From the IMG/VR virus record IMGVR_UViG_2802429139_000001: a DNA stretch of 64,000 nucleotides; one strand, 5' to 3'. Within the stretch, counting starts at the first letter, position 1. Each line of letters begins with the position of its first letter. The notes under the pieces were generated by a model. That model did no database searches. It saw only the letters and a program-made list of their open reading frames with translations, and was not told where the DNA came from. Shown here one piece after another: positions 376 through 57,014 of this stretch. Origin of the DNA: a virus. Position numbers and translations under genes: made by a program.

Positions 376-581
376 AGTGAGCCTCCTTCATAGCGTGACG
401 GTAGACCACTCTACTACCAAAACTGTACAAGGTCTATGCCCACCGTTTGACGTAGCGTTGCCTTGTACAACAACTTCGGTGTGTTCATATTGGTAGACTT
501 GTCTACCATCACTGCTACACTGATCATCGACACCGCAAGGTGTCAATCACAACGACGACAAGCGGAAACAAGGAGGTGAAC
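376..581. promoter_or_regulatory. Divergent intergenic region with operator-like palindromes (TGGTAGACTTGTCTACCA at 491..508; GGTAGACCACTCTACTACCAA at 400..420; CTGTACAAGG/CCTTGTACAA inverted pair)
   Basis: Palindromes read from sequence between divergently oriented ORFs. Confidence 0.5.
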
Positions 582-767
582 ATGGTTCAACCGCCTGACG
601 GGATGAGCCGAGATGAGGCGTTAGCAGCGCTGCGCCAACGGCGCAGAGTTGTCACCCAGAAGATTGCAAATCGCAAACGCGAGCTTCGTGCTCTCGTGGC
701 TGAAGTGCAATCCCTGGAGACAGAGCTAGCCCACATCGAACAAGGCGAAGATCTGCTGTCTAGCTAG
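582..767 (+). CDS. Hypothetical coiled-coil protein (62 aa)
   Basis: RBS AAGGAGG 6 nt upstream of ATG at 582; heptad-like Arg/Glu/Leu-rich sequence; leader motif CAATCACAACGACGACA upstream. Confidence 0.55.
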   Translation: MVQPPDGMSRDEALAALRQRRRVVTQKIANRKRELRALVAEVQSLETELAHIEQGEDLLSS

Positions 768-775
768 TCAGCAGG

Positions 776-812
776 TCACCAGGGGGTCGGGAGCGACCCT
801 CTCGGCCCCCTG
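776..812 (+). terminator. GC-rich hairpin CCAGGGGG...CCCCCTGG followed by T-rich tract
   Basis: Inverted repeat read from sequence after stop of 582..767. Confidence 0.4.
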
Positions 813-1030
813 GTCTCGTCTCGCTTGTCCTAGAGGTGATTTCGTTGGTCGCGATCACGGCAAGGACGCGAGCTAGCGCGCTAGGTGATCATTGGGCGCG
901 CTCCGTTTCGACTGGCTCACGTCACCAACACAACGCACCCCCGCCCGTTCTTTCTATACCGGGTGGCGGGCGGGGGTGTTCAAACATCATCAACAACAAC
1001 CTCTTTCGCAAGGTGCGGAAGGTGCATGCA

Positions 1031-2470
1031 ATGAAAGCGAGAAAACCAATGAACGATACCGACATCATCACCGGTGATGAGGTTACTTTTCACAACAACC
1101 CGCAGATCGTTCTGCCGGAAGGCATTACATACGGCCGCGCCAAGGAGATCCTGGAGCGCATGCAGGATGAGGCCGAGTCGGTGCAGCAGACCAGTCGCAC
1201 CTACCAGTTTCGCCCGTTTGACGGCGCGGTCGCCACCTCTCGGGTGATGAAGCGCATGTTCGGTATCACCATCGGCGCTCCGAGCGGTGGCGGCTTCTTC
1301 TCCCCGCCCGAGCCTCCGGAAACCCGCACGGTGCAGATTTCGGCGACGGAGACTCTGGAGGTTCCGTGGGGCAACGTCTACCTTCCCAGCGTGGACAACA
1401 AGACCGTCGTCCAGGTCGGCGGAAGGCGCGACCGCGACAACGGAATTGTCACGCACGTCAACGTCATCAGTGCGAAGAAGAACGCCAAGATCGCGCGCGA
1501 GTTCCTGGATGCGATCGGTGAGGAGCTGAAAACCAACTCGATCTATCGTGGCAAGGCGATCGTAGGCACCGAGGAGCCGGAGTTCCTGAACCTCGCGACC
1601 ATCGTACCGAGTGAGATCGTCTTCTCCGATGAAGTGATGAGCACACTGGAAGGCACTCTGTGGTTAGTGATTCGGCACCGTAAGGCGCTCAAGGGCGAGG
1701 GTGTGCGCATCAAGCGTGCGCTGCTGTTGGAGGGTCCGTACGGCACCGGGAAGACCTCGGCCGGTCAGCTCACCGCGCTGGAGGCCGTCCAGAACGGTTG
1801 GACGTTCATCGCTGCACGACCGGGCGATGACATCAACGATGTGCTCCGCACGGCCAAGCTGTACCAGCCCGCGGTGGTCTTCATCGAGGATGTGGACAAC
1901 CAGACATCGACCAGCGACGTGGATCAGGTGTCCAAGCTGCTGGAGACCTTCGATGGTGTGACATCCAAGGGGTCCGAGGTCGCACTTCTGATGACTACCA
2001 ACCACTTTGAGCGCATCCATAAGGGTATGCTCCGCCCAGGTCGCATCGATGCGGTGGTGGAGGTCGCGGCACTGGATCGCAACGGTGTTGAGCGTCTAAT
2101 CAAGGCCGTCGTCGCGTCCGAGCGTCTTGCCGAGGACGTGGACTATGACAAGGTCTATGAGGCGATGACCATCCAGCTTGGTGACGGTGTGGTGGTCGGC
2201 TTCTATCCAGCGTTCGTGCGCGAGGCGCTGGAGCGCGCCAAGACGTTCGCCATCGGTCGGCTCAATGGTGGAACCAACTACAAGCTGGACACCACCGATC
2301 TGGTCGGCGCGGCGGTCTCGCTGCACAACCAGCTCAAGGCCCAGTTTGAGGCCGAAGAGGGTATCGCCAGGCCGACGATCGACGATCAGATCCAGGGTCT
2401 CATGAGCGACTTCGAGATCCGGGATTACGACAACGATTACGTCGGTACCTTGAAGCTCAAGAAGAGCTGA
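1031..2470 (+). CDS. Classical-clade AAA+ ATPase with ~230-aa N-terminal domain of unknown function
   Basis: Walker A GPYGTGKT, Walker B VVFIEDVD, second region of homology MTTNHFERIHKGMLRPGRID; start trimmed to ATG 1031 with GGAAGG RBS. Confidence 0.85.
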   Translation: MKARKPMNDTDIITGDEVTFHNNPQIVLPEGITYGRAKEILERMQDEAESVQQTSRTYQFRPFDGAVATSRVMKRMFGITIGAPSGGGFFSPPEPPETRTVQISATETLEVPWGNVYLPSVDNKTVVQVGGRRDRDNGIVTHVNVISAKKNAKIAREFLDAIGEELKTNSIYRGKAIVGTEEPEFLNLATIVPSEIVFSDEVMSTLEGTLWLVIRHRKALKGEGVRIKRALLLEGPYGTGKTSAGQLTALEAVQNGWTFIAARPGDDINDVLRTAKLYQPAVVFIEDVDNQTSTSDVDQVSKLLETFDGVTSKGSEVALLMTTNHFERIHKGMLRPGRIDAVVEVAALDRNGVERLIKAVVASERLAEDVDYDKVYEAMTIQLGDGVVVGFYPAFVREALERAKTFAIGRLNGGTNYKLDTTDLVGAAVSLHNQLKAQFEAEEGIARPTIDDQIQGLMSDFEIRDYDNDYVGTLKLKKS

Positions 2471-2491
2471 TCCGCACCGCAGATACAAAGA

Positions 2492-2527
2492 AGCACCCCC
2501 GAGAGCGAATCTCGGGGGTGCTTCCGT
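2492..2527. terminator. Hairpin GAAGCACCCCCGAG...CTCGGGGGTGCTTC after AAA ATPase gene
   Basis: 14-bp perfect inverted repeat directly after stop codon. Confidence 0.6.
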
Positions 2528-2840
2528 ATCAACACATTTCGCCACTGTGGCGCATCTAGCGCCTGATCATTCTCCCGAATGACACACCGAGCAGAACACC
2601 GAACCCGACCAGTACGCCCAGGGTTGTCAGCAGGGTTCGCGTGGTCATCTCTTCGGCCTCGATCTCCTCCAGGTCGTCACACTCGGGACACCGGCACTTC
2701 TCCCGGTAGTGCGTGCAGTCGCAGGGGCCATCCAGCTCATGGCCAGCGCACGCGCCGGCGCGGTGGTGCGGGTCGCCAAGGTCGTGGTTTTCCAGGTCGT
2801 GGCCCGCACGCGCAGATGTCGGTGAGACCCAGATACTCGG

Positions 2841-3209
2841 TCATCGCTTGCCTCTCCAGCGGCGCACCGTCATGCGGTCGACGCGTGCTGCGCGCTGTGC
2901 GCCATGCTCGCTCAATCCGTCTTCCATCGACAGCAGCGCCACGACGCGCGCGACGGCCATGCCCATGTCGGCGCGGCTCCGCGCGCGCTCCAGCGCTTGC
3001 CCCGCGTCTTCTAGTGTCAGCTCTTCCGCGAGGTACCGCGCCGCGGCCATCATCGCGGCGTCGCGCATCGGATACTCGGCAGGGTCGGCGTAGCGTTCGA
3101 CCAGATCGTTGAACGTGTCCGCGAAACGCACCGACGCTGCGCGAGACAGCTTGAAACCGTTCTCGCGTAGCCATCCGGTCGCGTTGGTGGGAGCTGTTGC
3201 CATGGTCAT
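2841..3209 (-). CDS. Hypothetical protein (122 aa)
   Basis: GGAGGA RBS before ATG at 3209; GC3-rich frame; ends at TGA 2841..2843, with an open coding-like continuation downstream. Confidence 0.6.
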   Translation of the reverse strand: MTMATAPTNATGWLRENGFKLSRAASVRFADTFNDLVERYADPAEYPMRDAAMMAAARYLAEELTLEDAGQALERARSRADMGMAVARVVALLSMEDGLSEHGAQRAARVDRMTVRRWRGKR

Positions 3210-3266
3210 GAAGTGTCCTCCAGTTGTCACCTTCTAGTCTAGTGACGCGGCCGGTAGTCCAAGCTA

Positions 3267-4064
3267 CTAGCGCGGCAAACCTAGAGGGTCTACCGAATCA
3301 ATCGGACGGTCCATCGCCGCGGTTAGGCCAGCGCGCGCGCCCTGTTTGAATCCGTCGTCACTGAACTGATCCACCATCGTGTTGACCGCATCCGGATACG
3401 CATCTCGCATCGCGTCGCGAGCGCGCTCACGGTCCGACTTGTACAGCGCGACCACGCCAGCCTTGTTGGCCGCATCACCTTCCTGCTGTTTGATGCGCTC
3501 AGCGATCGACGCTGCGAACCCAATGAGCCAGGATTGACGGTAGACGTGCAGCGATTGCGGCGCTCGCTTATCGCGCGTCATCTGCACCAGGTGGTCCAAC
3601 CGCTCTGCCCGATTCATGGCCGCCCACTCATCCACGGTGGCCGTACGGAACGTCTCTCGTTTCGGCATCTCCACTTTGGCGACCAAGCGTGTCGCCTGTG
3701 GTTGCAATATCTCCCAGAGCATCCTCAGGCGTTCGACATGGTGAGACATGCCGAACACGTGCACGAGCGGCATGTTATTGAGACCAACGGTCTTGCAGTG
3801 CAGCGCCTCCGCGAGGATGGACAGCATGTGTTTCTGCTCGGCCTGATAGGGACCGCGCACCAGTAGCAGCGTGTCGATGGCGTTCGGGATGTCGCTGATG
3901 TCGAGACCGCGCTGGTGTGCGCGCACAGTCGCCAGATCGATGCCGTGTTTGGCGAGCAGCGCGAAGGCGCGTTCCTGAAATGCCTCCTCCTCGGGCGTCC
4001 CAGTCACATCCTCGGCCTGTCGCAACAGCTTTGCGATCTTGTCAACGATCCTGTCGTCAGTCAT
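3267..4064 (-). CDS. DUF2786-like protein (265 aa)
   Basis: N-terminal KIAKLLRQAEDVTGTPEEEAFQERAFALLAKHGIDL resembles DUF2786 signature. Confidence 0.65.
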   Translation of the reverse strand: MTDDRIVDKIAKLLRQAEDVTGTPEEEAFQERAFALLAKHGIDLATVRAHQRGLDISDIPNAIDTLLLVRGPYQAEQKHMLSILAEALHCKTVGLNNMPLVHVFGMSHHVERLRMLWEILQPQATRLVAKVEMPKRETFRTATVDEWAAMNRAERLDHLVQMTRDKRAPQSLHVYRQSWLIGFAASIAERIKQQEGDAANKAGVVALYKSDRERARDAMRDAYPDAVNTMVDQFSDDGFKQGARAGLTAAMDRPIDSVDPLGLPR

Positions 4065-4184
4065 GGGTGTCCCCTGATGTCGCGTTGTCTTGGTAGTTCA
4101 TTCTACCAAAATACTAGTAGACCTCTCTACCATTGTGCTACGGTCGATTGGTCTACCAAACAACGGACGAAAGGGCTGCTGCTC
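4065..4184. promoter_or_regulatory. Divergent promoter/operator region with three palindromes (TTGGTAGTTCATTCTACCAA 4090..4108; GTAGACCTCTCTAC 4116..4134; TTGGTCTACCAA 4149..4160)
   Basis: Half-site TTGGTAGAC / GTCTACCAA recurs here and at 400..509. Confidence 0.55.
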
Positions 4185-4388
4185 ATGGCCAAGAGGGTTT
4201 GGATCGATAACGGCGGAATGGTCACCTGCGACGAGCACTCGGGTATGTACATGCGTTTCGCCATCAAGGAGCGGCCCAGCGCGAAGCGGCACACCACACC
4301 TCTTGGTGTGTACGTCGCAGATGAGTCCGGAAAGTACGAGTGCGAAACTTGCGTCCCCTTCCACACGAGGAACCCAAATGCCCAGTAA
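4185..4388 (+). CDS. Small Zn-ribbon-like protein (67 aa; CDEH...CETC)
   Basis: AAAGGG RBS; stop overlaps start of next gene by 11 nt (translational coupling). Confidence 0.55.
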   Translation: MAKRVWIDNGGMVTCDEHSGMYMRFAIKERPSAKRHTTPLGVYVADESGKYECETCVPFHTRNPNAQ

Positions 4389-5400
4389 ATGGTCCAACGT
4401 GCTCCGCGGTGTCGCCTTTGGCGACGCGTGGGGCTACCGCAATGAATTCAGGTCGTACGCTCAGCTCACCCAGCACGGTCTCATGGGTCCTGCGCTGCCT
4501 GAGAAGCTGATCATCAGTGACGACACTCAGATGACGCTCGCGCTCGCGCGCGCTCTGCGCGGTGCGAGCGACAAGACTGACAGTGAGATCCGTGCCGACG
4601 TGCTTACGGAGTGGGTCAACTGGTACGGCGACCCTGACAACAACCGCGCACCTGGCAATACCTGCATGCGCGCGATCGACGCCATCAAGCAAGGTGCGCA
4701 CTGGCTAGACGCTGTGGTAGCCGACTCTGATGGTTGCGGAACCGTGATGCGTGTCAGCCCAGCGGCGCTCGTGAACAGTGAATTCCATAGCTGGCAAGGC
4801 ATTTCGACCTGGCAGGCTCTCACAACGCATGGATCACCGACAGGCGCGGCGGCATCACTGGTGGGTGCTGCCCTGATTCGGCTAGCACCCATGCCTGGCG
4901 ACACCGTGAACTACGCGCTGGACCTCACGCTTGAGGCTGTCGGCGATCCTGATGATCTGCTGCTGCATGGACTCGACGAGTGGATCGTCGAGAATGGCGA
5001 CTACTACGGTCCGGCTTATCAAGAGGGTGCACGTCGATTCATCACGCGCGGAATGCTGAATCTCGCGCACACGTTGGTAGACGCGGACATTGCGCTGAGA
5101 AACATTCGCGCGAAGGATCTAGATCCCTGGGACCTAGATCCGTGCGAGCTGGCAGGTCCGGGATGGCGTGCGCACCATGCGCTTTCAACCGCGCTGCTGT
5201 GCGTCGACCTTTTCCCGGAAGATCCGATCTCCGCGCTACGTCGCGCGACGGTCACCAGTGGAGACAGTGACTCGATCGCTGCGGTCGCTGGGGCCGTCCT
5301 CGGTGCGATCCATCCTGACCCCTGGCCTGACGGTTGGTTCGATCGACTGGAAACGCGCTACCAGAAAGAGATTTCAGAGGCAGAAGGGTTTGGGTTCTGA
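4378..5400 (+). CDS. ADP-ribosylglycohydrolase (DraG/ARH family)
   Basis: GVAFGDAWG, SDDTQM, C-terminal TSGDSDSIAAVAGAVLGA signatures of the ARH family. Confidence 0.85.
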   Translation: MPSKWSNVLRGVAFGDAWGYRNEFRSYAQLTQHGLMGPALPEKLIISDDTQMTLALARALRGASDKTDSEIRADVLTEWVNWYGDPDNNRAPGNTCMRAIDAIKQGAHWLDAVVADSDGCGTVMRVSPAALVNSEFHSWQGISTWQALTTHGSPTGAAASLVGAALIRLAPMPGDTVNYALDLTLEAVGDPDDLLLHGLDEWIVENGDYYGPAYQEGARRFITRGMLNLAHTLVDADIALRNIRAKDLDPWDLDPCELAGPGWRAHHALSTALLCVDLFPEDPISALRRATVTSGDSDSIAAVAGAVLGAIHPDPWPDGWFDRLETRYQKEISEAEGFGF

Positions 5401-5678: not shown

Positions 5679-5753
5679 GCATTGAGAATGAGCTACTGAG
5701 CAAGACGGCCAAACAGATTCACGACGGCCAGATCACAAGACCGTAGAACACAA

Positions 5754-7042: not shown

Positions 7043-7087
7043 CTCTACTCCAAGGCTCTGGTGAGGGGTCTCAGAGCTGAATGTATC

Positions 7088-7101
7088 CCGGTAGTTGACA
7101 G
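7088..7101. promoter_or_regulatory. Copy 1 of CCTGGTAGTTGA(TAC) upstream motif, ahead of DnaN start
   Basis: Shared motif with 40399..40414, 48425..48441, 51067..51082. Confidence 0.4.
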
Positions 7102-12453: not shown

Positions 12454-14199
12454 CTAGCTGAGTACGACGGCCATGGCACCCCAATTGATAGAGGTGTTTG
12501 CGAGCTTGAAAGTTGTTGTGTCAGAGGCAACATTCATAATTAGGTAAATCTGAGATGCCCCCTGGGAAAGGAACAATGCGCCACCGCCCTCGGTCCCTGT
12601 GGGAGCCGTGGAGGTGCCAAAAACCTGGAGGATCATCTGACCCGCAGTGCAGGTCACAGCCTGTGTCGGTTGCGATGAAGTACCCGAGGTCTTAGTTACG
12701 GTTCCTGACGGGGATGTGACACCGGACAGCGCGACTCCTGCCATGCGCCACCAACCGCTGCCAGTGGCCGTCACCGAAATGGTCTTGGTGCCCGCCGATC
12801 CCATGGCTGATGCGCTCCGGTAGATCTTGATGAACCCGGTGCCCACGCCTGATGTGAAGGTCTGGGTATCCAGGAGAGTCATGGCAGCGCCGGCACAAGT
12901 GACCGAAGACGGGTTGCCTGCGCGGTCTTGCACGACGGCGCAGTACACGTAATCACCTACTGCGGCATAGACATCGAAGGTGGAGGTGCCGCCGTTACTT
13001 TCTGACGTAGTGCCGTAGCTGCATCCGAGAGTCACCCCAGACTGTGTGGCGGGCTGAAGCGGGACAGCCAGCGCGGCCCAGTTTCGCGACGCGCTCAGTG
13101 AGCCCGTAAATGATGTGTCGGCGTCTGTATCTCTGACCGATTGAGTCAGGAATCCAGCGTTATCGAGATAGCGACTTGCGCCGCCCGTGAGACTCGACAG
13201 GGTGGTGCTGTTCTCGCCGGGCGTGAACGCGTGCACCGTTCTGCCGTTCAGGGGCACCGTGACTGATTGTGAGAAGGTGGTACCGATGCCTGTCGTCTGT
13301 TTGGCCGGGCCGTATCCCTGGACACCCGTGTAGGACGCGGCCACTACCTGGCCCCAACTGAATCCGGCCTTGTTGATGTTGACGGTTGCACTGCCAACGG
13401 CGACATTGCGAATCAGATACGCGCCCATGACAACACCACCGTTGAGTGCCTGGCCAAGGCAGATCATCGGCAAGTTGCTCGCACCGTACGTGGCGCTGAG
13501 GGGGCCGATGCTGCCCACCGAGTAGAAGGCCAGCACATCCGCCCCAGCGGCGGGACTGATGGTGCATGAGGTTGGCGAGCCGGTCGTTTCTGATCCGACG
13601 CCCACCGTGTCGAAAACGACCAAAGCCGTCTGTGTTATCGCGGGTGCACCGAACGCCTCCGCTGATGCAATTCCCGTAGTGGCGATGGTCATCGCGCCAC
13701 GGGTGAGTGTCGTCGCGCCGAACGCCTCGGCGCTGACGATGCTGGTCGGGGCGACGTTGCGGCTTATTTGCGGGCTGGGTACCGCCTCGGCTGATGGAAT
13801 GCCAGCGGTGACGATGACGACGTGGGAGAGCTTCGCCGTGCCGAAAGCCTCTGCCGATGGAATACCCGTGGGGGTCACCGTTACGGGTCCCACGGTGAAC
13901 ACGGGTGTGCCGAAAGCCTCTGCCGACGGAATCGCAACGGGGTTGAATGTGTTGCGCAGCAGTGCTGTACCGAAAGCCTCCCCTGACGGGATGCCGGTGG
14001 GGTACGTGAACTGCGGGAACGTGACCAGCGGTGAGCCGATCGCCTCGCCCGATGGAATGCTGGCGGGGCGCAGGTTGTAGACCAGTTTCACCAGTTCGGG
14101 TGTTCCGAACGCCTCCGCCGAAGCGATCGACGGAACCGATAGACCGAATCGTCCGTACCATTGGCCCCCTGAACTCTTGACCGGGAAGCCCTGGGGCAT
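12454..14199 (-). CDS. Minor tail protein with seven tandem ~22-aa repeats (IPSAEAFGTP...)
   Basis: Repeat units visible in translation; tail module position. Confidence 0.7.
   Translation of the reverse strand: MPQGFPVKSSGGQWYGRFGLSVPSIASAEAFGTPELVKLVYNLRPASIPSGEAIGSPLVTFPQFTYPTGIPSGEAFGTALLRNTFNPVAIPSAEAFGTPVFTVGPVTVTPTGIPSAEAFGTAKLSHVVIVTAGIPSAEAVPSPQISRNVAPTSIVSAEAFGATTLTRGAMTIATTGIASAEAFGAPAITQTALVVFDTVGVGSETTGSPTSCTISPAAGADVLAFYSVGSIGPLSATYGASNLPMICLGQALNGGVVMGAYLIRNVAVGSATVNINKAGFSWGQVVAASYTGVQGYGPAKQTTGIGTTFSQSVTVPLNGRTVHAFTPGENSTTLSSLTGGASRYLDNAGFLTQSVRDTDADTSFTGSLSASRNWAALAVPLQPATQSGVTLGCSYGTTSESNGGTSTFDVYAAVGDYVYCAVVQDRAGNPSSVTCAGAAMTLLDTQTFTSGVGTGFIKIYRSASAMGSAGTKTISVTATGSGWWRMAGVALSGVTSPSGTVTKTSGTSSQPTQAVTCTAGQMILQVFGTSTAPTGTEGGGALFLSQGASQIYLIMNVASDTTTFKLANTSINWGAMAVVLS
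13600..14080 (-). repeat. Tandem in-frame ~66-72 bp coding repeats inside the minor tail gene
   Basis: Recurring CCGAA(A/C)GCCTC(C/G)GC(T/C)GA(T/C)GG(A/C)AT units on plus strand. Confidence 0.5.
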
Positions 14200-25544: not shown

Positions 25545-25611
25545 AATTGGTCCCCTTCTACTGAGAAGTGGTCGGAACTTGGACCGGACCTGAGGGGGCA
25601 CCCGTTTCGGG

Positions 25612-28897: not shown

Positions 28898-29000
28898 GTG
28901 AGATCTCTCCTGCGTTTCGCATAGAGGGGGCGCCCGTTTCGGGCGATCCGCTCGGGTGTGAGCGGAAGTCTGAGACGCCCAGATCGCTTGTTAAATAGCG

Positions 29001-36692: not shown

Positions 36693-36908
36693 GGGTGCCT
36701 GCTCTTTCTGTGCGCGTTTCGCGCGACCGTTTCGGTCAGGGTTGGCACTGAAACAGTGGCGAAACAGTGCCCTAGCTGCGGATATGCCGCATGTCTCAGC
36801 CGGGGTCGAAAAGGTCCAGACCCAGGCGGAGCCCCAGCGCCTATGCCAACCGGGGATTTCCGGGGGCCCAGGGGGCTCCCCTCCCCAGCCCCTCTGCGCC
36901 CGCGTGAG
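36693..36908. other. Probable cos/packaging region (GGCACTGAAACAGTGGCGAAACAGTGCC inverted/direct repeats, G-rich runs)
   Basis: Repeats between HNH and TerS genes. Confidence 0.35.
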
Positions 36909-38892: not shown

Positions 38893-40313
38893 TTGTGCTT
38901 CCAGACGCTCCAGTCGTTGCGCTCGTTGGCCTTGAATGTGGTGAGCCACTGACTGCCCCAAACGATCTGCTCACGCCATTTGGGCGAGCGTGCAACGTAA
39001 TTGAATGCCGCCATATCACCCTTGACCTTGCTCGGCCCCACGCGGAAGATCTCACGCACCATGTCGGCGCAGAAGTCCAGCAGCGTCGCGTGATCACCAC
39101 CTACGACGCCTGCGTTGAGTAGTTGAGCGCCACCATTCTCGGCTATCCACTGCTGATAAGGCGGATGATTCTGGCGCATCCAGGGGATGTCCAAGACGGT
39201 TGGCTCATGCCCGACATACAGCGCACCCTCACGCATCAAGCCCCAGGGCTCGCGCAACATCTCGACGTCGGTGCCATCGGTCATCCATACCCACGCGCTC
39301 TCGTGGTCGCGCAGATAGCGATAGCAGACTATCCAGCGTTGGAGGTATGGATTCAGACCCGACTCCACAGACGCCCCGGCGCCTCCGTCGTGCTCATAGG
39401 GTTCGTCGGCCAGAATGATCGACTTCGCACCTCTGATTGACTTGCGCCAGGCCTGAAAGTCGGCTGACACCAACTTGGAAGCGTTCTTACGCTGTGGATC
39501 AACCACTTTCGTCAACATGGTGGTGATGACTTCATTGCTCAGTTGACGGTATGGGACGAATCCGTGCGTGGTCTCGCGCAGCTCGGCCAGCAGATGATCG
39601 TTGCGCTCGATCTGCGTCTGGCGCTCACGATCGTTGACGCTGCGCTTGAATTCGGGATGCTTGTGCCAGTGCTCATCCATCGAATAGATGAACTCGGCTG
39701 AACCCGCGGCGTCCTGAAATGCATTGGTAGTCAGGCCGGTGTTGTTGATGCGAAGGCTGTACTCGACGTGCTCATGACCCCATACGCCGAAGATGGTTCG
39801 CATGCCACCACAGCGCTCGATGACACTGTGGTTCACGTAGATGAGACACCCCATTGGGTGATTGAATGCGCGCGTCCGACCGTCTTCATAGATGGTCTCC
39901 GGTGTGCCCACGGGTTTACCGTTCGCGTCAAGCGTCTTGAACAGATAGCACAGGTGGGGCTCTGGGTTATCGATGTAGAGATCTGTCCAGCCCTGTTTGA
40001 TCGGATAGCAGTCGTCATCAAGAAGAAACAGCTCGGTACAGCCAGCATCAACCAGCAGCTCAATGCACTTGTTCTTGGCCGCGGCGACGCCAGCACGCTC
40101 AGCGAATCGATAGGTGATACCTAAGCCTGGCTGCGTGGATGCGTCGTCAACGACAACCACCGTTGCACCCGGCGTAAAGCGCCGGACATGCTCAAGTGTT
40201 GTGGCTAGGACTTCGGGGCGGTTCCGCGTCGTGATCGCGACGCCGATATGCGATTGCGCCGGCGTGCCGGACGGTACGAACTCAACCCCATTGATCAGCA
40301 CTGATGGATTCAA
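38889..40313 (-). CDS. Glycosyltransferase (family-2-like N-terminal domain plus C-terminal domain)
   Basis: GVAITTRNRPEVL...VVVVDDAS; GGAGG RBS before TTG start. Confidence 0.6.
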   Translation of the reverse strand: MNPSVLINGVEFVPSGTPAQSHIGVAITTRNRPEVLATTLEHVRRFTPGATVVVVDDASTQPGLGITYRFAERAGVAAAKNKCIELLVDAGCTELFLLDDDCYPIKQGWTDLYIDNPEPHLCYLFKTLDANGKPVGTPETIYEDGRTRAFNHPMGCLIYVNHSVIERCGGMRTIFGVWGHEHVEYSLRINNTGLTTNAFQDAAGSAEFIYSMDEHWHKHPEFKRSVNDRERQTQIERNDHLLAELRETTHGFVPYRQLSNEVITTMLTKVVDPQRKNASKLVSADFQAWRKSIRGAKSIILADEPYEHDGGAGASVESGLNPYLQRWIVCYRYLRDHESAWVWMTDGTDVEMLREPWGLMREGALYVGHEPTVLDIPWMRQNHPPYQQWIAENGGAQLLNAGVVGGDHATLLDFCADMVREIFRVGPSKVKGDMAAFNYVARSPKWREQIVWGSQWLTTFKANERNDWSVWKHK

Positions 40314-40398
40314 AATCGCCTCCGACGGAAGGCCTGGACCGGATTTTGGGATGGGTCTGTCAGTTGCTCATGATACGACGTGTAGTGGACATTGTGTT

Positions 40399-40414
40399 GC
40401 CTGGTAGTTGATGG
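40399..40414. promoter_or_regulatory. Copy 2 of CCTGGTAGTTGA motif upstream of glycosyltransferase operon
   Basis: Shared motif. Confidence 0.4.
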
Positions 40415-40431
40415 CGCGCCCGACATACAAC

Positions 40432-40461
40432 GAAGGCCCCCGGAGGGGTCCGAGGGCCTTC
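40432..40461. terminator. Hairpin GAAGGCCC...GGGCCTTC between early and glycosylation modules
   Basis: 8-bp GC stem. Confidence 0.4.
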
Positions 40462-40511
40462 GTCCATCACAACAACGACACCTTTGCGGAAAGGTGCCTG
40501 ATCAGTATAGA

Positions 40512-45472: not shown

Positions 45473-45645
45473 GGCACTCCTCGGGGTGTGTTGTGATTGC
45501 CTCTCATTGTGCGCCACGCGGGCGCACTATAGGTCCCACACGCGTCCACACGAGCACTTGAACGCCGCGCGGCCACCGCGCCCGGCTGTCTCGCCGAGTA
45601 CGCGGTGACCACGAAACGAGTGCCACCACATTCGCAGCACGAACA

Positions 45646-48014: not shown

Positions 48015-48418
48015 GACACCTCCTGTCGCGCAAGGCGATCAAGAGCGACCACGAAGAGATCGATCAGATCATCGGTCCTCAGAAAGTCCTCGGTACCAAA
48101 CGTCTTGACTGTCGTGTTCAGCAGGCCCGCCAGAAGTTTCAGCGGCGGGGCGCCATGCTCTCGCACCATGTCGCGATGCTCTTTGACCATCGCGTCCAGC
48201 GACTCGCCAACCGCCTGCTGCCAGGCCTGATCCTCTTCGGTGACTGGTAGGTAGGTCATGCCGTCACCACCCAGATCAGCGCCTCCGGGTCGAAGCCGAG
48301 ACGTTTGACCGTCGCCGTGTAGGCGGGCGTCTCGTCGTACTCCGGTAACCGGATGCCCAGGAATTTGTAGATCCAGTGCTTCACCGTTCTCTCCCAATTT
48401 CATTGTTGTGATTGTCAA
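48011..48418 (-). CDS. Small protein, paralog family member 3
   Basis: LIDLFVVALDRLARQE. Confidence 0.5.
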   Translation of the reverse strand: MTITTMKLGENGEALDLQIPGHPVTGVRRDARLHGDGQTSRLRPGGADLGGDGMTYLPVTEEDQAWQQAVGESLDAMVKEHRDMVREHGAPPLKLLAGLLNTTVKTFGTEDFLRTDDLIDLFVVALDRLARQEVS

Positions 48419-48424
48419 TTCATT

Positions 48425-48441
48425 GCCTGGTAGTTGATACC
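48425..48441. promoter_or_regulatory. Copy 3 of CCTGGTAGTTGATAC motif, followed by CTACC (GGTAG-N11-CTACC)
   Basis: Shared motif. Confidence 0.4.
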
Positions 48442-50395: not shown

Positions 50396-50574
50396 TTCGT
50401 TCTCCGCGTTGGTTTGTCGTTGTGTGTCAATAGTTTTGGGTGGCGCGCCCCGCCCCGACCGCCAGCGATTGGGACCTGAAACCAATCACTATGGTCGGGA
50501 TAGGGAGCGGGGCGCGCCTGCCGAGACGAGCAGATCGGGCGGGGGTTTGATCCGCTTCTAGCCTCGGCCGCTCA

Positions 50575-51039: not shown

Positions 51040-51066
51040 TGGTTGATCCTTTCATTCCTGGTAGTT

Positions 51067-51082
51067 GATACGCGCGGCGCAC
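51067..51082. promoter_or_regulatory. Copy 4 of CCTGGTAGTTGATAC motif
   Basis: Shared motif. Confidence 0.4.
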
Positions 51083-52135: not shown

Positions 52136-53112
52136 CGGACGGGCACCGTCGGTATAGCGCCATTGATCGGCCAGCAGCCGGCGGTAGGCTGTCCCTTCTC
52201 CAGTGACTTCTGGATGCAGTACATGATGATGACGTTCGGGTCGTTGGACACCGACGACGCCAGTATCTTGTTGGCGTCGGCCTGCGCCTGTGCCGTCTGC
52301 TTAGCCTGCTCGGCCACCGCGGTGTTGGCCTTCTCGGCGTTGAACTGGTTGATCTTGTCTTCGGTCTGCTGGTCGTAGTCGATGATCGGCACGTTGACCT
52401 CAAGTACGTCGATTTGCGCACTGATCTTGTCGTTGAGACGCTTCTGGACCTCCCGCGACAAAGTGCCCAGGTCAGCGCCGTTCGTGGCGTTTTTGGGCGT
52501 GAGAGGGTCGAATGATGCGAATGTCTCATTCATCGCCGACTGAAGCGAGCGAGTGACCAGATTGGACTTCACGTTGTCGAACGTCTTGTATTGGACGAAG
52601 AGCACATCAGCGGCGTCAGCCTTGATCTGCCAGCGCACGTTTACGTCTGCGTCAGCCGTCGAGTTGTTACCCAGACGGATCTTCACGCGGTGGTCGCCGT
52701 TGAACACGTCGTTTTGAATCGCGCCATCCATCTCAGTCACGTTCGACCAAGGGGCTTTGACATGTAGTCCGTTCTGGAGCGTTGTGCCGGAGGGTTTCCC
52801 GAACGTGGTCACGATGCCGACGCTGCGCGTCGCCACGATCGTGAAGCATCCGAAAGCCAGAATGATCGCCGCTAGCGCGAGAACGGCAGTGCCGACGATG
52901 ATCGTCATCTTCGACGTACCGCGGTTCTCGGCTACGCGGTCGGCTTGGTTCTCCCAGTCGCGCAGCTTGTACGTGTAGTCATAGTCATTGGGCCCATCCT
53001 TCTCAGGCTTAGGGCCGACGCTGCCGGACTTGCGCAGCATCCAGAGTCCGACCCCGATGATCGGGACTGCGATGAAAACCAGGACAATGAATGTCCACAT
53101 CTGCCAGCTCAT
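52132..53112 (-). CDS. SPFH/band-7 (prohibitin-like) membrane protein
   Basis: Two N-terminal TM helices then SPFH-like domain. Confidence 0.75.
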   Translation of the reverse strand: MSWQMWTFIVLVFIAVPIIGVGLWMLRKSGSVGPKPEKDGPNDYDYTYKLRDWENQADRVAENRGTSKMTIIVGTAVLALAAIILAFGCFTIVATRSVGIVTTFGKPSGTTLQNGLHVKAPWSNVTEMDGAIQNDVFNGDHRVKIRLGNNSTADADVNVRWQIKADAADVLFVQYKTFDNVKSNLVTRSLQSAMNETFASFDPLTPKNATNGADLGTLSREVQKRLNDKISAQIDVLEVNVPIIDYDQQTEDKINQFNAEKANTAVAEQAKQTAQAQADANKILASSVSNDPNVIIMYCIQKSLEKGQPTAGCWPINGAIPTVPVR

Positions 53113-53149
53113 TTCATACCTTCCGTTGATGGTGTCGTTGTGTTGTTGA

Positions 53150-54079
53150 TTACGCCGCGCCGAGTTCGGTCAGGCGCCGTTTGACGACGACCTTGAACGC
53201 ATCGTCAATCGCGTCCTCCTCGTAGGCTGTCTGCCAGAGGTCGCGAAGTTCTTCCACGCTGGTGCAGGCCAGCGCGAGCGGGATCAGCGGATCGTCCTCA
53301 CTGATGGGGACAAACAGGCCGCTCTCACTACGCCAGTCCCAGACCTCCTTGGCAAGCTGGCACGCCTTCCAGCCGCGCGAGATGTCCACCCAGTGCAGCT
53401 CGCACTTGCCCTCACCGGATGGCAGATGAATGACGATGGCGCGGTCCTGGTCGATCTCAAAGCCGTCAACCTGGTCGCCGTCGGCGGTGTATGCCGTGCT
53501 GCGCGAGTACGCGCCGAGCTGCATCGAGATCTCACGCTCAGACCAGGTGATGTCACCCGTCTTGACGTCGATGATGTAGTACTTCCCCTGGTACTCCCCG
53601 ACCCGGTCTGGAGTGCCGGCGACCTGCCAGTCATGCAGGACGCGCATCGTCTCAATCTGCTTGTATTTCAGACCGTTTGCATCGCGGCACTTCTCATAAG
53701 CCTCAATGTCCCCGACGAACGCTGACGGGATGGAACCCAATGGCTCTCCGCGGTCCACACGCTCGCACAGCTTGTGCAGCGCCGTCCCGGTGGTCGACTT
53801 GGACGATGATCGCGCGTGCTCCATCGCCTTGTGCGCTACATCGTTGAGCGTCCCCTTGTCATCCTGCGTACACGACGCTGCGGCCAGCACCAGATCTTCA
53901 CGCTGACCCAACCCGAGCGCCACCTGGCGCAGCTTCCACTTCTCCAGGTTGTAGGTGTCTTCGAGTACGTTGATGAACTTGGTGGTCCGGCGGTAAGCCT
54001 TGAGCTTGCCGTCTGGCTGCTTGATCTTCGGTCGGCCCCAGCCGTCACGCGGGATGTCGTTGGTGAACTGATCACTCAT
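53150..54079 (-). CDS. PD-(D/E)XK nuclease (YqaJ/RecE-like exonuclease)
   Basis: TPD ... IIDVKTG motifs. Confidence 0.55.
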   Translation of the reverse strand: MSDQFTNDIPRDGWGRPKIKQPDGKLKAYRRTTKFINVLEDTYNLEKWKLRQVALGLGQREDLVLAAASCTQDDKGTLNDVAHKAMEHARSSSKSTTGTALHKLCERVDRGEPLGSIPSAFVGDIEAYEKCRDANGLKYKQIETMRVLHDWQVAGTPDRVGEYQGKYYIIDVKTGDITWSEREISMQLGAYSRSTAYTADGDQVDGFEIDQDRAIVIHLPSGEGKCELHWVDISRGWKACQLAKEVWDWRSESGLFVPISEDDPLIPLALACTSVEELRDLWQTAYEEDAIDDAFKVVVKRRLTELGAA

Positions 54080-54348
54080 CGAAACTCCCCCTTGTATAGG
54101 CCAGCGTCCGACAGGTCAGCAAGCGCTTGAGCCTGATTCATGATCTGATCGCGTGCGATGGCCATCACCTCGTCGCGCGGCACTGGCGCGAATACGACTG
54201 TTGTGCTGTCATTTTCGCTGTCGTACGCCGCCGACACTGGTCGCCAGAAGATGCCGCGAGAGCACGGCCCCAGCAGTTGTGGGGTGTTGGCGACCTCGCG
54301 CGCGTCACCGTCGTAGACGGCCCGGCGACGAGCTGGGACTTCGTTCAC
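54076..54348 (-). CDS. Hypothetical protein
   Basis: ORF. Confidence 0.45.
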   Translation of the reverse strand: MNEVPARRRAVYDGDAREVANTPQLLGPCSRGIFWRPVSAAYDSENDSTTVVFAPVPRDEVMAIARDQIMNQAQALADLSDAGLYKGEFR

Positions 54349-55064
54349 TCAGACACCTGCTGACGACTCGGGACCAGGCTGGCCAGTCCGACTGCTGCCT
54401 TGTTCTGTGCGTCCGAGTGGATGCCCAAGCCGATCTCGGCCAGCCAGGCGCGCAGTCCACCGCGCTCATTCGGCACGAGCGCCGCCAGCGCTACCGTAAG
54501 CACTTGCAGCTCATGACGATTACGCTTCTCCAGCCCCTTCCAGACCTCCTCGGGGTCATCCTCACGAATCTCGCTGACGAGCTTGTACGCCTCATCGAGC
54601 ACGCGACCACAGACCTTGACGTGAGCGCCGCTCTGGTTGTGCACCTTGACGGCTCCGCGCGGTGCGCGGTAGATACCGAGCGCCTTCTGAATGATCATCG
54701 CCTGGTCAGATGTGCTGGGCCGCAGGATCATCGCGACGTGCGCCAGGGCCAACTCGCTGTATCGCGTCGGCTGCGTCACGCTGCCGGGCATGTAACCCAC
54801 CTCGATCAGCTCTTCGTAGTACTGACGGGCGATATTGGTCAGCGTCGATCGGCTGATGCCGAAGTAGTCGCAGACCTCGGGGATGGTCATTGTTCCGGCA
54901 ACGACAGGGAACTCAATGCCGAGATCAGCCAGGCGCTCCAGCGCGACCGCCGAGAGCGCCTCTCGCCGCCGTTTCCAGTACAGCTTCTTGCGCGAACTAC
55001 GTTCGCCATCAGTCGTTTTCAGCACGCCGGTCGTCATGTCGTCGGTTACCAATGCGAGTGTCAT
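54345..55064 (-). CDS. HTH DNA-binding protein
   Basis: IPEVCDYFGISRSTLTNIARQY. Confidence 0.5.
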   Translation of the reverse strand: MTLALVTDDMTTGVLKTTDGERSSRKKLYWKRRREALSAVALERLADLGIEFPVVAGTMTIPEVCDYFGISRSTLTNIARQYYEELIEVGYMPGSVTQPTRYSELALAHVAMILRPSTSDQAMIIQKALGIYRAPRGAVKVHNQSGAHVKVCGRVLDEAYKLVSEIREDDPEEVWKGLEKRNRHELQVLTVALAALVPNERGGLRAWLAEIGLGIHSDAQNKAAVGLASLVPSRQQVSE

Positions 55065-55477
55065 GCGATCTCCTCAATGTCCGTCAAGGACTCCCCGTCT
55101 TCCAGGGCGATGATGACCAGCGGGTCCCTAACTCGGTGAAACGGGACGATGCGGAACTTCACGTCCCACACCGGGGGTGTGTCGTGCTGGTCTACCGTCT
55201 CGGTGCCGACGTAGACCGCCCAGTCGTCAACTTCGTCCCAGTGCGTTGACAGCAATAGGCGTCGCCCCTGACTGGTCACCAGTGCGTACGTGCCGGAGTG
55301 CAACGGCCAGTCGCTCCCGTTCATACGAAGGAACAACTGATGGTCCTGCGCTCCAGCCTCCACGATCAGGTTGTTGCCCGCGGTCAGCCAGTTGTCGATC
55401 TCTACGCGCGCCTCCATGTCTTGCGACGGAAGCTGTTGCATGAGTTGGCCGAACCAATCCTTGAGCTTTCCCATCAT
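55061..55477 (-). CDS. Hypothetical protein
   Basis: ATGA overlap. Confidence 0.45.
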   Translation of the reverse strand: MMGKLKDWFGQLMQQLPSQDMEARVEIDNWLTAGNNLIVEAGAQDHQLFLRMNGSDWPLHSGTYALVTSQGRRLLLSTHWDEVDDWAVYVGTETVDQHDTPPVWDVKFRIVPFHRVRDPLVIIALEDGESLTDIEEIA

Positions 55478-56001
55478 CGACTCCGAGGTCCCAGCGCGGC
55501 GGTCCGGAAGCATGCCGCGGTCGCCCTGGCGTCGTCTAGGGCGCTGTGCTCAGTGCCCGTGTCCACCGATAGCGATACGCACACGTCGTGCAGACCGCGA
55601 ATGTCGCTCGGGTCGAACCCCAGCGCGCCGCTGACGTACGCGCACACATCGGCCAGCCGGTAATGCCAGCTCTCCGCGTATCCCGTCGCCTTGACCAGCA
55701 TGTCGGCGTCGAACCGCGGGTTAGCGCCGCCGAGCCTGTTGCCCTTCAGCATGTCAAACAGCTCGCGATAGGCTTGGACGTTGTCGGCCGGACTCTTGAG
55801 CATCTTGCGGAACACGCCACGCTCGTAATACCTGTTGATACGCAACGCTTCCGGGTCGGCCAACATCATCTGATCAGGCTTGATGTAGGGCACAAAGTAG
55901 AGTTCCTGGCCGGTGGCGACGTTGACCGCCGCCACCTCCAGGATCGAGTGAACATCGGTGTCAAGACCTGTGGTCTCCAGGTCCACCACGATCAGGTCCA
56001 T
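55474..56001 (-). CDS. DnaQ-like 3'-5' exonuclease (DEDD)
   Basis: VVDLETTGLD ... HSALDDARA. Confidence 0.8.
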   Translation of the reverse strand: MDLIVVDLETTGLDTDVHSILEVAAVNVATGQELYFVPYIKPDQMMLADPEALRINRYYERGVFRKMLKSPADNVQAYRELFDMLKGNRLGGANPRFDADMLVKATGYAESWHYRLADVCAYVSGALGFDPSDIRGLHDVCVSLSVDTGTEHSALDDARATAACFRTAALGPRSR

Positions 56002-56549
56002 CAGTTTTCCGCCGCCTTTGATACCGGGGTGGTGACGACCGTGGGGACGTGGACGATTGTCCAGTCACCGCCGATCACGTACCGCGGGTCAACACTGTCG
56101 CTACCGAAGACGTTTTCATCCTGCGGTAGTCCGACGTTCATTCCCAAGTGGTGAGTCAGCAGGTGATGGATGAACGCCATCGCCTCAAACTTGCCTTCTG
56201 GGTTGATGCGCGCGAATTCCCAGCCGTCCAACGTTTTCAGGCCAGCGACGATCGCGAACGGGTGATCATCCATGCGACTGAAAATGATGCTGCCACTGGG
56301 GCACTCATCCGGCCGTGTCTTGTCCGGCCCGATGATTGTCATCGACGGATCGCGGCAGACGATCCACGTCATATCCAGGTCGCCCATTATCTCCTCGTCG
56401 GTAGACGGCTCTTGGGTGATCTTGAGCGTGCTCGATTCGGTGACCTGCATGAGATACCAGCCGTCCTCAGCGCGCAGACCGAAGACTGCGTGGTTGTCGT
56501 TGTCCGGGCAGATGGTGAACACCATTGCACCCGTGGGATACTCACGCAT
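56001..56549 (-). CDS. Hypothetical protein, paralog A (CPxNDNH motif)
   Basis: Shares motif with next gene. Confidence 0.5.
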   Translation of the reverse strand: MREYPTGAMVFTICPDNDNHAVFGLRAEDGWYLMQVTESSTLKITQEPSTDEEIMGDLDMTWIVCRDPSMTIIGPDKTRPDECPSGSIIFSRMDDHPFAIVAGLKTLDGWEFARINPEGKFEAMAFIHHLLTHHLGMNVGLPQDENVFGSDSVDPRYVIGGDWTIVHVPTVVTTPVSKAAEN

Positions 56550-56865
56550 GGTCGACCACCTCCTCGTCCTCGTCGGTGATCAACGGCGCGGTGGGAATGT
56601 GCACGATGGTCACGACCATCGGCTTGGGTCCCTGCTGGAGCTCGTGGAAGTCCTGATCACTGATGACCGGGATCGAATGACCAGCCAACAGCGCAAGACC
56701 CAACTTCTGAGGTTCCATGAACATGGTGAAATTGCCACGCTCAGCGACGCCGGAAAGGTTCCAGCCGTTGGCGTCTCGCAGTAGCACTGAGACATGGTTG
56801 TCGTTGCGTGGGCACACCCAGTACGCGATGGTGCCGCTGGGGTATGTCGGGTAGTTGGTGTCCAT
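56542..56865 (-). CDS. Hypothetical protein, paralog B (CPRNDNH motif)
   Basis: Shared motif. Confidence 0.5.
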   Translation of the reverse strand: MDTNYPTYPSGTIAYWVCPRNDNHVSVLLRDANGWNLSGVAERGNFTMFMEPQKLGLALLAGHSIPVISDQDFHELQQGPKPMVVTIVHIPTAPLITDEDEEVVDHA

Positions 56866-56972
56866 CAGAACGCCCCCACTCGGATCAGGTACGCCGCCGC
56901 GACGATCGGCCCGGTCATGGCCAACATCAGCCAGGACGCGTAGTCGCCGAAAGTCATTTCCTTGGATGACAT
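56865..56972 (-). CDS. Small hydrophobic peptide (35 aa)
   Basis: GGAAGG RBS and leader motif; below track cutoff. Confidence 0.3.
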   Translation of the reverse strand: MSSKEMTFGDYASWLMLAMTGPIVAAAYLIRVGAF

Positions 56973-57014
56973 CTCATTCCTTCCATTCGTTGGTGTCGTT
57001 GTTGTGATGCCCTT

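Follow-up and report, generated by a model that had tools for sequence, protein, structure and literature searches.

Leaders at early-gene starts of a Mycobacteroides abscessus prophage, and a reversed, structured copy that may act on them as antisense RNA

The window analyzed here, 64,000 nucleotides of viral DNA from IMG/VR record IMGVR_UViG_2802429139_000001, carries a prophage in which two families of short repeats recur between genes, namely a CAA-rich sequence found just upstream of start codons (hereafter the "leader") and a 13-bp site (hereafter "T"). Leaders stand at the places in the early operon where ribosomes need to load afresh, and one further copy lies reversed, within a conserved pair of hairpins at the end of that operon. 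The complement of this reversed copy matches the leader of gene 8, and the two have changed together in a diverged relative, which raises the possibility that the reversed copy acts as an antisense RNA on leader-bearing genes. T belongs to a separate family, and its features suggest that a phage regulator recognizes it as double-stranded DNA.

Source genome and relatives

In reverse complement, the window is a 100% match to Mycobacterium phage prophiFSIL01-1 (BK061311.1; hereafter FSIL), a prophage of Mycobacteroides (Mycobacterium) abscessus assigned to cluster MabR. Record positions in BK061311.1 equal 62536 minus the window position, and window positions 62536-64000 are host DNA. In phage orientation, FSIL starts with the integrase and then the leftward repressor (gene 3), which are followed by a rightward early operon running from cro, excise, and a methylase through replication and recombination genes to gene 43, and then by a glycosyltransferase block, virion and lysis genes, and a mixed-orientation gene "island". 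According to the MabR and McProf papers, expression of this island in lysogeny is likely or typical, and RNA sequencing (RNA-seq) of a McProf lysogen shows island expression. All MabR comparisons below are based on five genomes, i.e. FSIL and its four relatives McProf, prophiFSAT01-1 (FSAT), prophiFVLQ01-1 (FVLQ), and prophiFSQJ01-1 (FSQJ). The early region is 83-89% identical to that of FSIL in McProf, FSAT, and FVLQ, and much more diverged in FSQJ.

A search of IMG/VR for further relatives returned only copies of the same five genome types, and the IMG/VR copies of the FVLQ and FSQJ types provided two additional rows for the element alignment. In a collection of species-representative genomes, no relative of the primase/polymerase gene was detected, and a DNA pattern search matched unrelated bacteria only, mostly Rhizobium. 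The MabR and McProf papers are both silent on operators, promoters, and intergenic motifs.

Two distinct families of intergenic motifs

Both motif families are real, occur far above chance, and are almost wholly intergenic, as proposed in an initial annotation of this window that described two recurrent upstream sequence families. A leader 16-mer matched four sites with at most three mismatches, where 0.42 were expected, and none of 100 shuffles reached four; once core-only copies are included, the family comprises seven instances, each read back base by base at its coordinates. A 15-mer representing T (CCTGGTAGTTGATAC family) matched seven sites at the same threshold, against 0.68 expected and again with 0/100 shuffles reaching that number, and four of these copies were confirmed by readback (Table 1). 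The comparison of motif counts with expectation suggested in the annotation thus places both families above the expected level, with no shuffle equaling either count. The same picture emerged from an unbiased test in which all 7- to 9-mers were scored for intergenic excess, intergenic DNA representing 4% of positions. The top 8-mer was ATCACAAC, with five of its seven genomic copies intergenic (P=2e-6), followed by ACAACGAC (5/9 copies intergenic); next to these leader words ranked ACTAGTAG, found in the immunity region and the island, and then GTAGTTGA, the T core. Leader and T positions are both kept at orthologous gaps across all five MabR prophages, and the two are different things that form separate families.

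A few of the annotated positions required correction. The T copy placed at 51067 lies at 51057, and those placed at 7088, 40399, and 48425 were each off by one (7087, 40400, and 48426). Similarly, the leader-bearing gene reported to start at 48418 is gene 26, whose annotated start is the GTG at 48384, position 48418 being instead a TTG with which the gene-27 frame is extended across the leader.

Leaders head translationally coupled blocks of early genes

All six gene-linked leaders are in sense orientation and lie in gaps of 37-179 nt, the seventh instance being the reversed copy. Their CACAAC core is found 23-34 nt from the start codon, always 5' of a separate GGAG-type ribosome-binding site, and this distance holds in long gaps (179 nt in FSIL, 93 nt in FVLQ, and 91 nt in FSQJ). 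Hence the leader of gene 21 remains start-proximal despite its long gap, and the gene downstream of it differs among relatives. Early-operon gaps of at least 37 nt are found at junctions 7/8, 15/16, 19/20, 20/21, 25/26, 34/35, 40/41, and 43/44, all of which hold at least one of the two motifs (leader or T), apart from 40/41, a gap that is missing in the relatives. The remaining early junctions overlap or are separated by at most 3 nt, so that the leader gaps are the only places where fresh ribosome loading is needed. Accordingly, leaders head the translationally coupled blocks 8-15, 16-19, 21-25, 26-34, and 35-43, as well as gene 91, and neither leader nor T was found in any late-operon gap. 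In PHROGs, leader-headed genes belong to families of unknown function only, with the exception of a "lipoprotein" family for gene 16.

Start regions that carry a leader are predicted to fold weakly, with a mean of -8.7 kcal/mol vs -17.8 kcal/mol for all other genes (P=0.0025; P=0.009 when compared to other genes with an upstream gap), a difference that follows partly from their G-poor composition, such that the test is not an independent one. Orthologous leaders vary among relatives by gain or loss of CAA units and by A-to-G changes, including in the gap before gene 16, and these CAA-unit indels suggest a compositional constraint. Promoters were considered and rejected as an explanation: no -10/-35 geometry (sigma-A type, 16-18 nt spacing) was identified at any motif copy, no TANNNT hexamer is rightly placed in the leaders, and a promoter consensus scan of the region returned one site where 4.4 were expected, i.e. 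fewer than by chance. Taken together, these features fit an element acting in mRNA at the translation start, and the leader would represent the untranslated ribosome-loading region at the head of each coupled early lytic block. Leaders thus add a new kind of start-associated sequence, one specific to this cluster, that marks where blocks of early genes begin.

The initial annotation had suggested that the motifs may mark a co-regulated gene set, possibly early or lysogenic. The notion of a coherent set is borne out, since leaders head every coupled early lytic block, whereas a lysogenic set is at odds with the McProf lysogen RNA-seq, which lists no early genes among 16 expressed ones. Gene 91 is the leader-bearing gene located within the region described as likely or typically lysogeny-expressed in the MabR and McProf papers.

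A separate observation concerns the gap between genes 20 and 21 (50396-50574). Gene 20 stands alone there, flanked by a small hairpin on one side and, on the other, by a long G+C-rich one (GGCGCGCCCCGC ... GCGGGGCGCGCC), whose arms differ among relatives yet still pair, an arrangement that resembles an inserted, separately terminated unit in the early operon.

The reversed copy is part of a conserved, structured element

The early operon ends with gene 43, and the reversed copy is located in the gap that follows, where the transcribed strand reads GGUGUCGUUGUUGUGAUGG. The first six bases of this stretch are part of the 3' arm of a hairpin (hairpin 1, 40477-40498, GGCACCUUUCCGCAAAGGUGUC), and the remainder forms a single-stranded linker leading to hairpin 2 (40430-40463), which is strong and terminator-like, with a 16-bp G+C-rich stem followed by UUGUAUGU. 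The predicted fold of the element is more stable than expected in both lineages (z=-4.7 in FSIL, z=-7.9 in FSQJ). The 13 nt GTTGTTGTGATGG and the stem of hairpin 2 are invariant in 5/5 MabR genomes, hairpin 1 is rebuilt with other bases in FSQJ (CUGCACC...GGUGCAG) such that pairing is compensated, and the top of hairpin 2 shows two compensatory double changes across MabR genomes. In a sensitive blastn search with a 181-nt query, the element was the only part of that query that aligned with FSQJ, and the flanking 3' end of gene 43 did not align. A conserved coding role is excluded by a 1-nt indel between lineages at the reversed copy, where the FSQJ frame is only 10 codons long. A search of the whole window against Rfam 15 yielded no family match at gathering score.

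Because of this five-genome invariance, the compensated pairing, its survival in the blastn comparison, and the indel, we consider the reversed copy to be a selected, structured, non-coding element. The initial annotation had listed it as an orphan copy with no open reading frame (ORF) behind it. The absence of a conserved ORF is confirmed here, including by the lineage indel, but "orphan" no longer seems an apt description for a copy that co-varies with the leaders and is better conserved than the rest of its gap.

Complementarity and co-variation between the element and leaders

In FSIL, McProf, FSAT, and FVLQ, the complement of the element is identical to the gene-8 leader over 18/18 nt, forming an inverted repeat whose two arms are both intergenic. 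In FSQJ, the element complement, CATCACAACAACTGCACCAGCGGAAGA, matches the leader of the gene-8 orthologue at 25/27 nt, ribosome-binding site included. The annotated start of this orthologue (FSQJ gene 7, 4766-4963) is likely 62 nt too far 5': its C-terminal 38 residues match gp8, the probable true start is the ATG at 4828, with CAACAACACAACAACACAACAACGCACCAGCGGAAGAAGAGAGATCGAAATG lying 5' of it, and the extra N-terminal codons correspond to the CAA-rich leader and ribosome-binding site read as protein. Consistent with a lineage-specific pairing, an 11-mer specific to FSQJ, CCAGCGGAAGA, occurs exactly three times within the first 30 kb of that genome, once in the element and once each ahead of genes 7 and 25.

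Predicted duplexes show the same pattern, with cognate pairs being stronger than swapped pairs in both directions: -40.7 kcal/mol for the FSIL element with FSIL gene 8 and -44.3 kcal/mol for the FSQJ element with FSQJ gene 7, vs -33.9 kcal/mol for the FSIL element with FSQJ gene 7 and -37.6 kcal/mol for the FSQJ element with FSIL gene 8. When the whole FSQJ genome was scanned, the best two sense-strand sites were the start regions of genes 25 and 7 (-48.6 and -44.5), with z about -5 and -4 relative to a background mean of -26.0 (standard deviation 4.4). Among annotated start regions, the gene-8 orthologue ranked first as a target in FSIL, McProf, FSAT, and FVLQ and second in FSQJ, and the next ranks were mostly taken by other leader-bearing genes, including gene 91 as the second-best predicted target in FSIL. 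If only the 20-nt exposed stretch is used, the gene-8 site is the best site in the FSIL genome. A third candidate for a co-varying target, the start region of the AAA-ATPase gene, was rejected: the sequences are similar, yet cognate duplexes were no better than swapped ones. The positions, enrichment, conservation, structure, complementarity, and co-variation reported up to this point are directly established from the genomes.

A possible antisense mechanism and its alternatives

We propose that the reversed element acts as an antisense RNA on leader-bearing start regions, a full mechanism to which we would give close to, though short of, an even chance. Several points of our overall reading are ones that we infer, namely the expression of the element, the pairing, and the direction of its effect, as well as which protein binds T. 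A piece of ~70 nt would be made either as the stable or protected 3' end of the early transcript, or from a weak promoter of its own, for which the -10-like hexamer TATACT next to the gene-43 stop is a possible candidate. Through its pairing stretch, GUUGUUGUGAUGG, this RNA would base-pair with the leader and ribosome-binding site at leader-bearing start regions. Its strongest partner would be gene 8, which heads a block including DnaQ-like, helix-turn-helix (HTH), and Cas4-type exonuclease genes, while gene 91, gene 16, and other block heads would be weaker partners. Such pairing would block ribosome loading and, because each leader heads a coupled block, the whole block would be lowered, with possible polarity. 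Should the element be produced with the early transcript alone, the result would be a delayed negative feedback on early genes; if it is made in the lysogen, it could instead provide a second, RNA-based layer of immunity with lineage-specific pairing. The product of gene 8 is itself a 35-aa single-helix membrane peptide, for which a toxin-like role is possible, if unsupported.

Several observations weigh against this antisense mechanism. When the full 37-nt element is used, the gene-8 site of FSIL is only marginally better than random coding sites (-40.7 vs -40.3). Leaders beyond gene 8 share 9-11 contiguous complementary bases with the element, and their energies are mostly within the genome background, with the exception of gene 91 in FSIL and gene 16 in McProf and FVLQ. 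Part of the complement is buried in hairpin 1, the minimum-energy fold of FSQJ pairs most of the linker, and hairpin 1 together with its G/U-rich tail GUUGUUGUGA also scores as terminator-like. The candidate promoter TATACT has no convincing -35 and was not called by the consensus scan, and the weak folding of leader start regions is, as mentioned above, partly compositional. The co-variation is a single comparison between two diverged lineages. Finally, the sole MabR transcriptome is that of the McProf lysogen, and the McProf paper mentions no RNA from the 43/44 gap.

Part of this pattern would also be expected if leaders were unstructured, CAA-rich ribosome-loading spacers with no partner in trans, and if the reversed copy were the G/U-rich tail or spacer of tandem terminators, its likeness to gene 8 resulting from an old inverted duplication. 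We regard this explanation as unlikely, but still a serious one, given that leader start regions fold weakly, that orthologous leaders drift via CAA-unit indels, that hairpin 1 followed by GTTGTTGTGA is called terminator-like, and that, for most leaders, pairing with the element does not exceed background. What it leaves unexplained is the invariance of the 13-nt linker between diverging flanks, along with the way in which the FSQJ complement tracks the leader and ribosome-binding site specific to its lineage (25/27 nt; 11-mer at three sites only), which is not expected of a passive tail. Leaders and the reversed copy could otherwise be double-stranded DNA sites for a phage regulator with which they would co-evolve, e.g. 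the HTH protein gp43, encoded just 5' of the reversed copy, or gp13. Copies on both strands, the HTH genes within the operon, and the fact that the sites of one protein can change jointly between lineages are all consistent with this, but 6/6 gene-linked copies are in one orientation and near the ribosome-binding site even in long gaps, the 27-nt FSQJ match including a ribosome-binding site is long for a protein site, and leaders are loose in sequence due to CAA indels, making this alternative improbable in our view.

Two other explanations appear to have little chance of being correct. One is that the motifs are module-boundary sequences promoting recombination between related phages, with no role in expression. 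Gene content indeed differs beside several motif gaps: gene 21 has been replaced, an insertion of three genes precedes the T site and leader of gene 28 in FSAT, and FVLQ lacks the exonuclease gene before its gene-7 leader. However, junctions must fall in gaps, so that this association is expected regardless, an inverted copy would be of no help for exchange between collinear genomes, and the fixed distance to the start codon and the hairpin context would remain unexplained, all of which makes a boundary role highly improbable. The other, which we deem very improbable, is that T is the 5' part of a composite RNA leader, or that the motifs are internal promoters. T does lie immediately 5' of a leader or ribosome-binding site at genes 5, 20, 26, and 86, and TTGACA adjoins the leaders of genes 21 and 26; against this, one FSQJ copy of T is in the opposite orientation, no TANNNT -10 is found at the right spacing, TTGACA is not conserved in relatives, and the promoter scan result (1 site vs 4.4 by chance) is below expectation.

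Table 1. Leaders, reversed copy and associated element, and T and T-like sites in the window
Feature	Position	Strand	Sequence and context
Leader, gene 8 (35-aa membrane peptide)	56992-57009	-	CATCACAACAACGACACC; ATG 56972; identical in McProf, FSAT, FVLQ
Leader, gene 16 (Band-7-like membrane protein)	53131-53149	-	TCAACAACACAACGACACC; ATG 53112
Leader, gene 21	50411-50431	-	ATTGACACACAACGACAAACC; ATG 50395; 3' end of 179-nt gap
Leader, gene 26	48398-48419	-	ATTGACAATCACAACAATGAAA; GTG 48384; T copy immediately 5'
Leader, gene 35	45485-45499	-	CAATCACAACACACC; ATG 45472; conserved in four close relatives
Leader, gene 91 (61 aa, 5' of AAA-ATPase gene)	544-560	+	CAATCACAACGACGACA; ATG 582
Reversed leader copy	40465-40482	+	CATCACAACAACGACACC; exact reverse complement of gene-8 leader
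Candidate antisense element, end of early operon	40430-40498	-	Hairpin 1, linker, hairpin 2
-10-like hexamer	40504-40509	-	TATACT (TACACT in FSQJ); 2 nt after gene-43 stop; from sequence and alignment only
T, before gene 20	51057-51071	-	GTATCAACTACCAGG; exact; ends 18 nt before ATG
T, before gene 26	48426-48440	-	GTATCAACTACCAGG; exact; immediately 5' of gene-26 leader
T, after terminator-like hairpins, 5' of glycosyltransferase gene	40400-40414	-	CCATCAACTACCAGG; 2 mismatches; lost in FSQJ
Degenerate T, before gene 81 (sliding clamp)	7087-7101	-	CTGTCAACTACCGGG; 3 mismatches; GTCAACTACCGG in the same gap of FSQJ
T-like, inside cro 3' end, 30 nt before excise start	59400-59412	-	ATCAATTACCAGA, then leader-like CAACGACGTACCAACC
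T-like, before gene 86	4089-4101	-	Right half of palindrome TTGGTAGAATGAACTACCAA
T-like, between -35 (TTGACA) and -10-like hexamer of putative early promoter before cro	59727-59739	+	GCTAGTAGTTGAT in phage orientation

T is a candidate DNA site for a phage regulator

In phage orientation, T reads (GT)ATCAACTACCAGG, and three identical T 13-mers are found in FSIL, two of them preceding genes 20 and 26 and the third following the hairpins at the end of the operon. The last of these lies at 40400 inside a 38-aa ORF (gene 44) that is annotated only in FSIL and FVLQ, the stretch being conserved but non-coding in McProf, FSAT, and FSQJ. The copy before gene 26 stays with its downstream gene in FSAT despite three inserted genes. 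In FSQJ, two identical copies of a different 13-mer, TATGAACTACTGG, are found in opposite orientations, one of them adjoining an island-type palindrome, and the change from GGTAG (FSIL) to AGTAG (FSQJ) is common to T sites and island palindromes. T also shares 9 nt (GTAGTTGAT) with the site in the putative early promoter before cro, itself an assignment that we infer from sequence. The initial annotation was right that T shares a core with the island operators, GGTAG being common to T and to the palindromes before gene 86. It had also placed T upstream of leftward operon starts, a description that does not hold: T lies in gaps within a long co-directional gene array, with the copy at 40400, after the terminator-like hairpins, as a possible exception.

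No complementary partner for T was found on any sense strand, and an antisense partner of the type proposed for the leaders was rejected. Since T copies are identical within a genome, change together between genomes, and tolerate both orientations, their sequence points to a double-stranded DNA site for a phage regulator. T would thus act on DNA and not on RNA, as an asymmetric 13-bp site related to the early-promoter site and the gene-86 palindromes, and its probable role is that of a roadblock or auxiliary operator bound by a phage HTH regulator. For this regulator, gp3 (the repressor), gp4 (Cro), and gp87 (the island HTH protein) are all candidates, among which we make no choice. Between FSIL and FSQJ, the island HTH protein is 66% identical. 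In a Pfam search limited to the repressor, Cro, gp13, gp43, gp87, and gp44, weak sub-threshold HTH similarities were obtained for Cro, gp13, and gp43, and no match for the repressor, gp87, or gp44.

Additional observations were made around several of these sites. Just before the glycosyltransferase gene, the gene 44 stretch (40310-40426, - strand; also 40318-40333) holds a -10-like hexamer (TATCAT) and a third hairpin, with GATTTTG after it, in addition to the T site; the next transcription unit may have a regulated leader here. The divergent repressor/cro region (59658-59945) contains at least four CTAGTAG sites, two of which form an 8-bp inverted repeat (GCTAGTAG ... CTACTAGC) around the -10 region and start of the putative early promoter (TTGACA, 18 nt, GATGAT), and these sites are probably the true immunity operators. 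A link between CTAGTAG and the repressor family was sought via the Cluster K2 phage Milly and rejected, as no CTAGTAG sites flank the Milly homologue. The divergent region between genes 85 and 86 (4065-4184) includes three GGTAG-based sites, with two palindromes, GGTAGAGAGGTCTAC and TTGGTAGAATGAACTACCAA, around a TAGTAT -10-like hexamer; the FSQJ equivalent has CTAGTAGAC..GTCTACTAG palindromes.

Comparison with known phage and bacterial systems

The closest analogues of leaders are the start-associated sequences (SAS) of Cluster K mycobacteriophages, described in PMC3203893 and whose role was still "not known" in PMC11373665. Like leaders, these are short asymmetric repeats located just 5' of the starts of non-structural genes, preferring genes with an upstream gap, and they occur in one orientation along with a single reversed copy tied to no gene. 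The sequences are nevertheless different: the SAS 13-bp consensus, GGGATAGGAGCCC, has one match at two mismatches in the window, vs 1.48 expected, and this match is not near a start codon. Moreover, SAS contain the ribosome-binding site and lie 3-9 bp from the start, while MabR leaders are 5' of the ribosome-binding site at 23-34 nt. Gene-linked copies are also fewer for leaders (6, vs 11-19 for SAS), and leaders are loose, with CAA repeats, where SAS are near-exact 13-mers. Leaders are therefore an analogue, and not a member, of the Cluster K SAS, because two defining SAS sequence features fail. The resemblance to actinophage start-associated sequences suggested by the initial annotation thus extends to the layout, i.e. 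start association, a single orientation, non-structural genes, and one reversed copy, but not to family membership as judged from the consensus and ribosome-binding site.

The reversed SAS copy of Cluster K phages offers a parallel to the MabR element. In Adephagia (Cluster K1, JF704105), 16 SAS copies are forward and one is reversed, the latter being in a 432-bp non-coding gap after a terminator (record about 58,600-58,780). On the transcribed strand, this reversed copy forms the loop, CCUCCUAUCCCC, of a ~19-bp hairpin, in a region with z=-6.7. The hairpin element is present in 131 Cluster K records, and a consensus fold across seven diverged members includes 35 pairs, 7 of which show compensatory double changes. 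The loop is kept in 5/7 diverged members, altered in DarthP, and lost in SirPhilip. Co-variation between loop and SAS was considered and finds no support in DarthP, which keeps the canonical SAS though its hairpin loop has drifted. Recent Cluster K papers call the role of SAS unknown and do not mention the reversed-copy hairpin. This hairpin is thus a parallel and not a proof, and by analogy would allow the antisense reading to be tested in another well-studied group of phages.

Small structured antisense RNAs control immunity in phages P1 and P7 (c4 RNA) and P4 (CI RNA), where they are encoded in the same operon as their targets. These RNAs are complementary to two or more repeats 5' of genes, with the P1 RNA covering the ribosome-binding site and the P4 RNA acting on the nascent transcript. 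The MabR element similarly has two conserved hairpins flanking a complement to gene starts, and the putative regulator and its predicted targets change together, based on one lineage comparison. In contrast to the c4/CI type, to which it has no sequence or Rfam relation, this candidate RNA maps to the operon's 3' end, at a distance of 16.5 kb from its best predicted target. Another precedent comes from small RNAs derived from mRNA 3' ends that act in trans on the start region of another mRNA, such as s-SodF in Streptomyces and CpxQ in Salmonella. To our knowledge, actinobacterial hosts lack Hfq, and s-SodF is an actinobacterial precedent that works without it. As in s-SodF and CpxQ, the proposed pairing stretch of the MabR element is located just 5' of the terminator-like hairpin of a protein-coding transcript; unlike for these two RNAs, processing from the early transcript is a supposition, and the element may also have its own promoter (TATACT).

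For T, the most relevant comparison is to the stoperators of Cluster A phages (PMC5712189), which are likewise asymmetric 13-bp sites in short gaps of lytic operons, related to an early-promoter site, and in one orientation, as T is in FSIL. However, there are 4-7 T sites vs ~24 stoperators, the T early-promoter site differs at 2/13 positions and is inverted, and FSQJ has one copy per orientation, unlike stoperators. The stoperator consensus, GGTGGMTGTCAAG, has 4 matches at two mismatches in the window vs 3.27 expected, none of them at intergenic sites of interest. By analogy, T seems loosely nearest to the stoperator in function, while site number, orientation rule, and consensus do not match.

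Other repeats in the window

Outside of the two main families, a third intergenic repeat, CCGAAACGG, is found at 36727-36735, 28934-28942, and 25602-25610 (- strand), i.e. with 3/3 genomic copies intergenic, 5' of the small terminase, scaffolding, and major tail genes. These copies occur in small hairpin-like contexts (CCCGAAACGGG, GCGCGAAACGCGC), and the repeat may be a late-gene signal. Gene 70, which encodes a minor tail protein, contains six imperfect direct repeats of ~39 nt (13641-14127), spaced by 60-69 nt with one gap of 129, that indicate a repeated peptide module.

Significance

Two annotation corrections follow from this work, as the start of FSQJ gene 7 is likely misplaced and the 38-aa gene 44 of FSIL is doubtful. 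More broadly, start-associated repeats of actinophages have had no known function since 2011, and this was still the case in a 2024 paper. If the antisense mechanism is correct, such repeats would be target sites for a phage small RNA, and the presence of one antisense copy for many sense copies would offer a concrete mechanism for start-associated repeats, with exact coordinates in two phage groups. In its boldest form, an antisense RNA cut from, or ending, the early transcript would shut ribosome loading at all leader-bearing block heads, and the same logic may explain the SAS of other actinophages, a generalization that is possible but that we currently hold to be doubtful. MabR prophages occur in clinical M. 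abscessus strains, and one of them, McProf, increases drug resistance in M. chelonae according to the McProf paper. Knowing how the early genes of these prophages are held off or timed would thus be of practical value, including for the engineering of M. abscessus phages.

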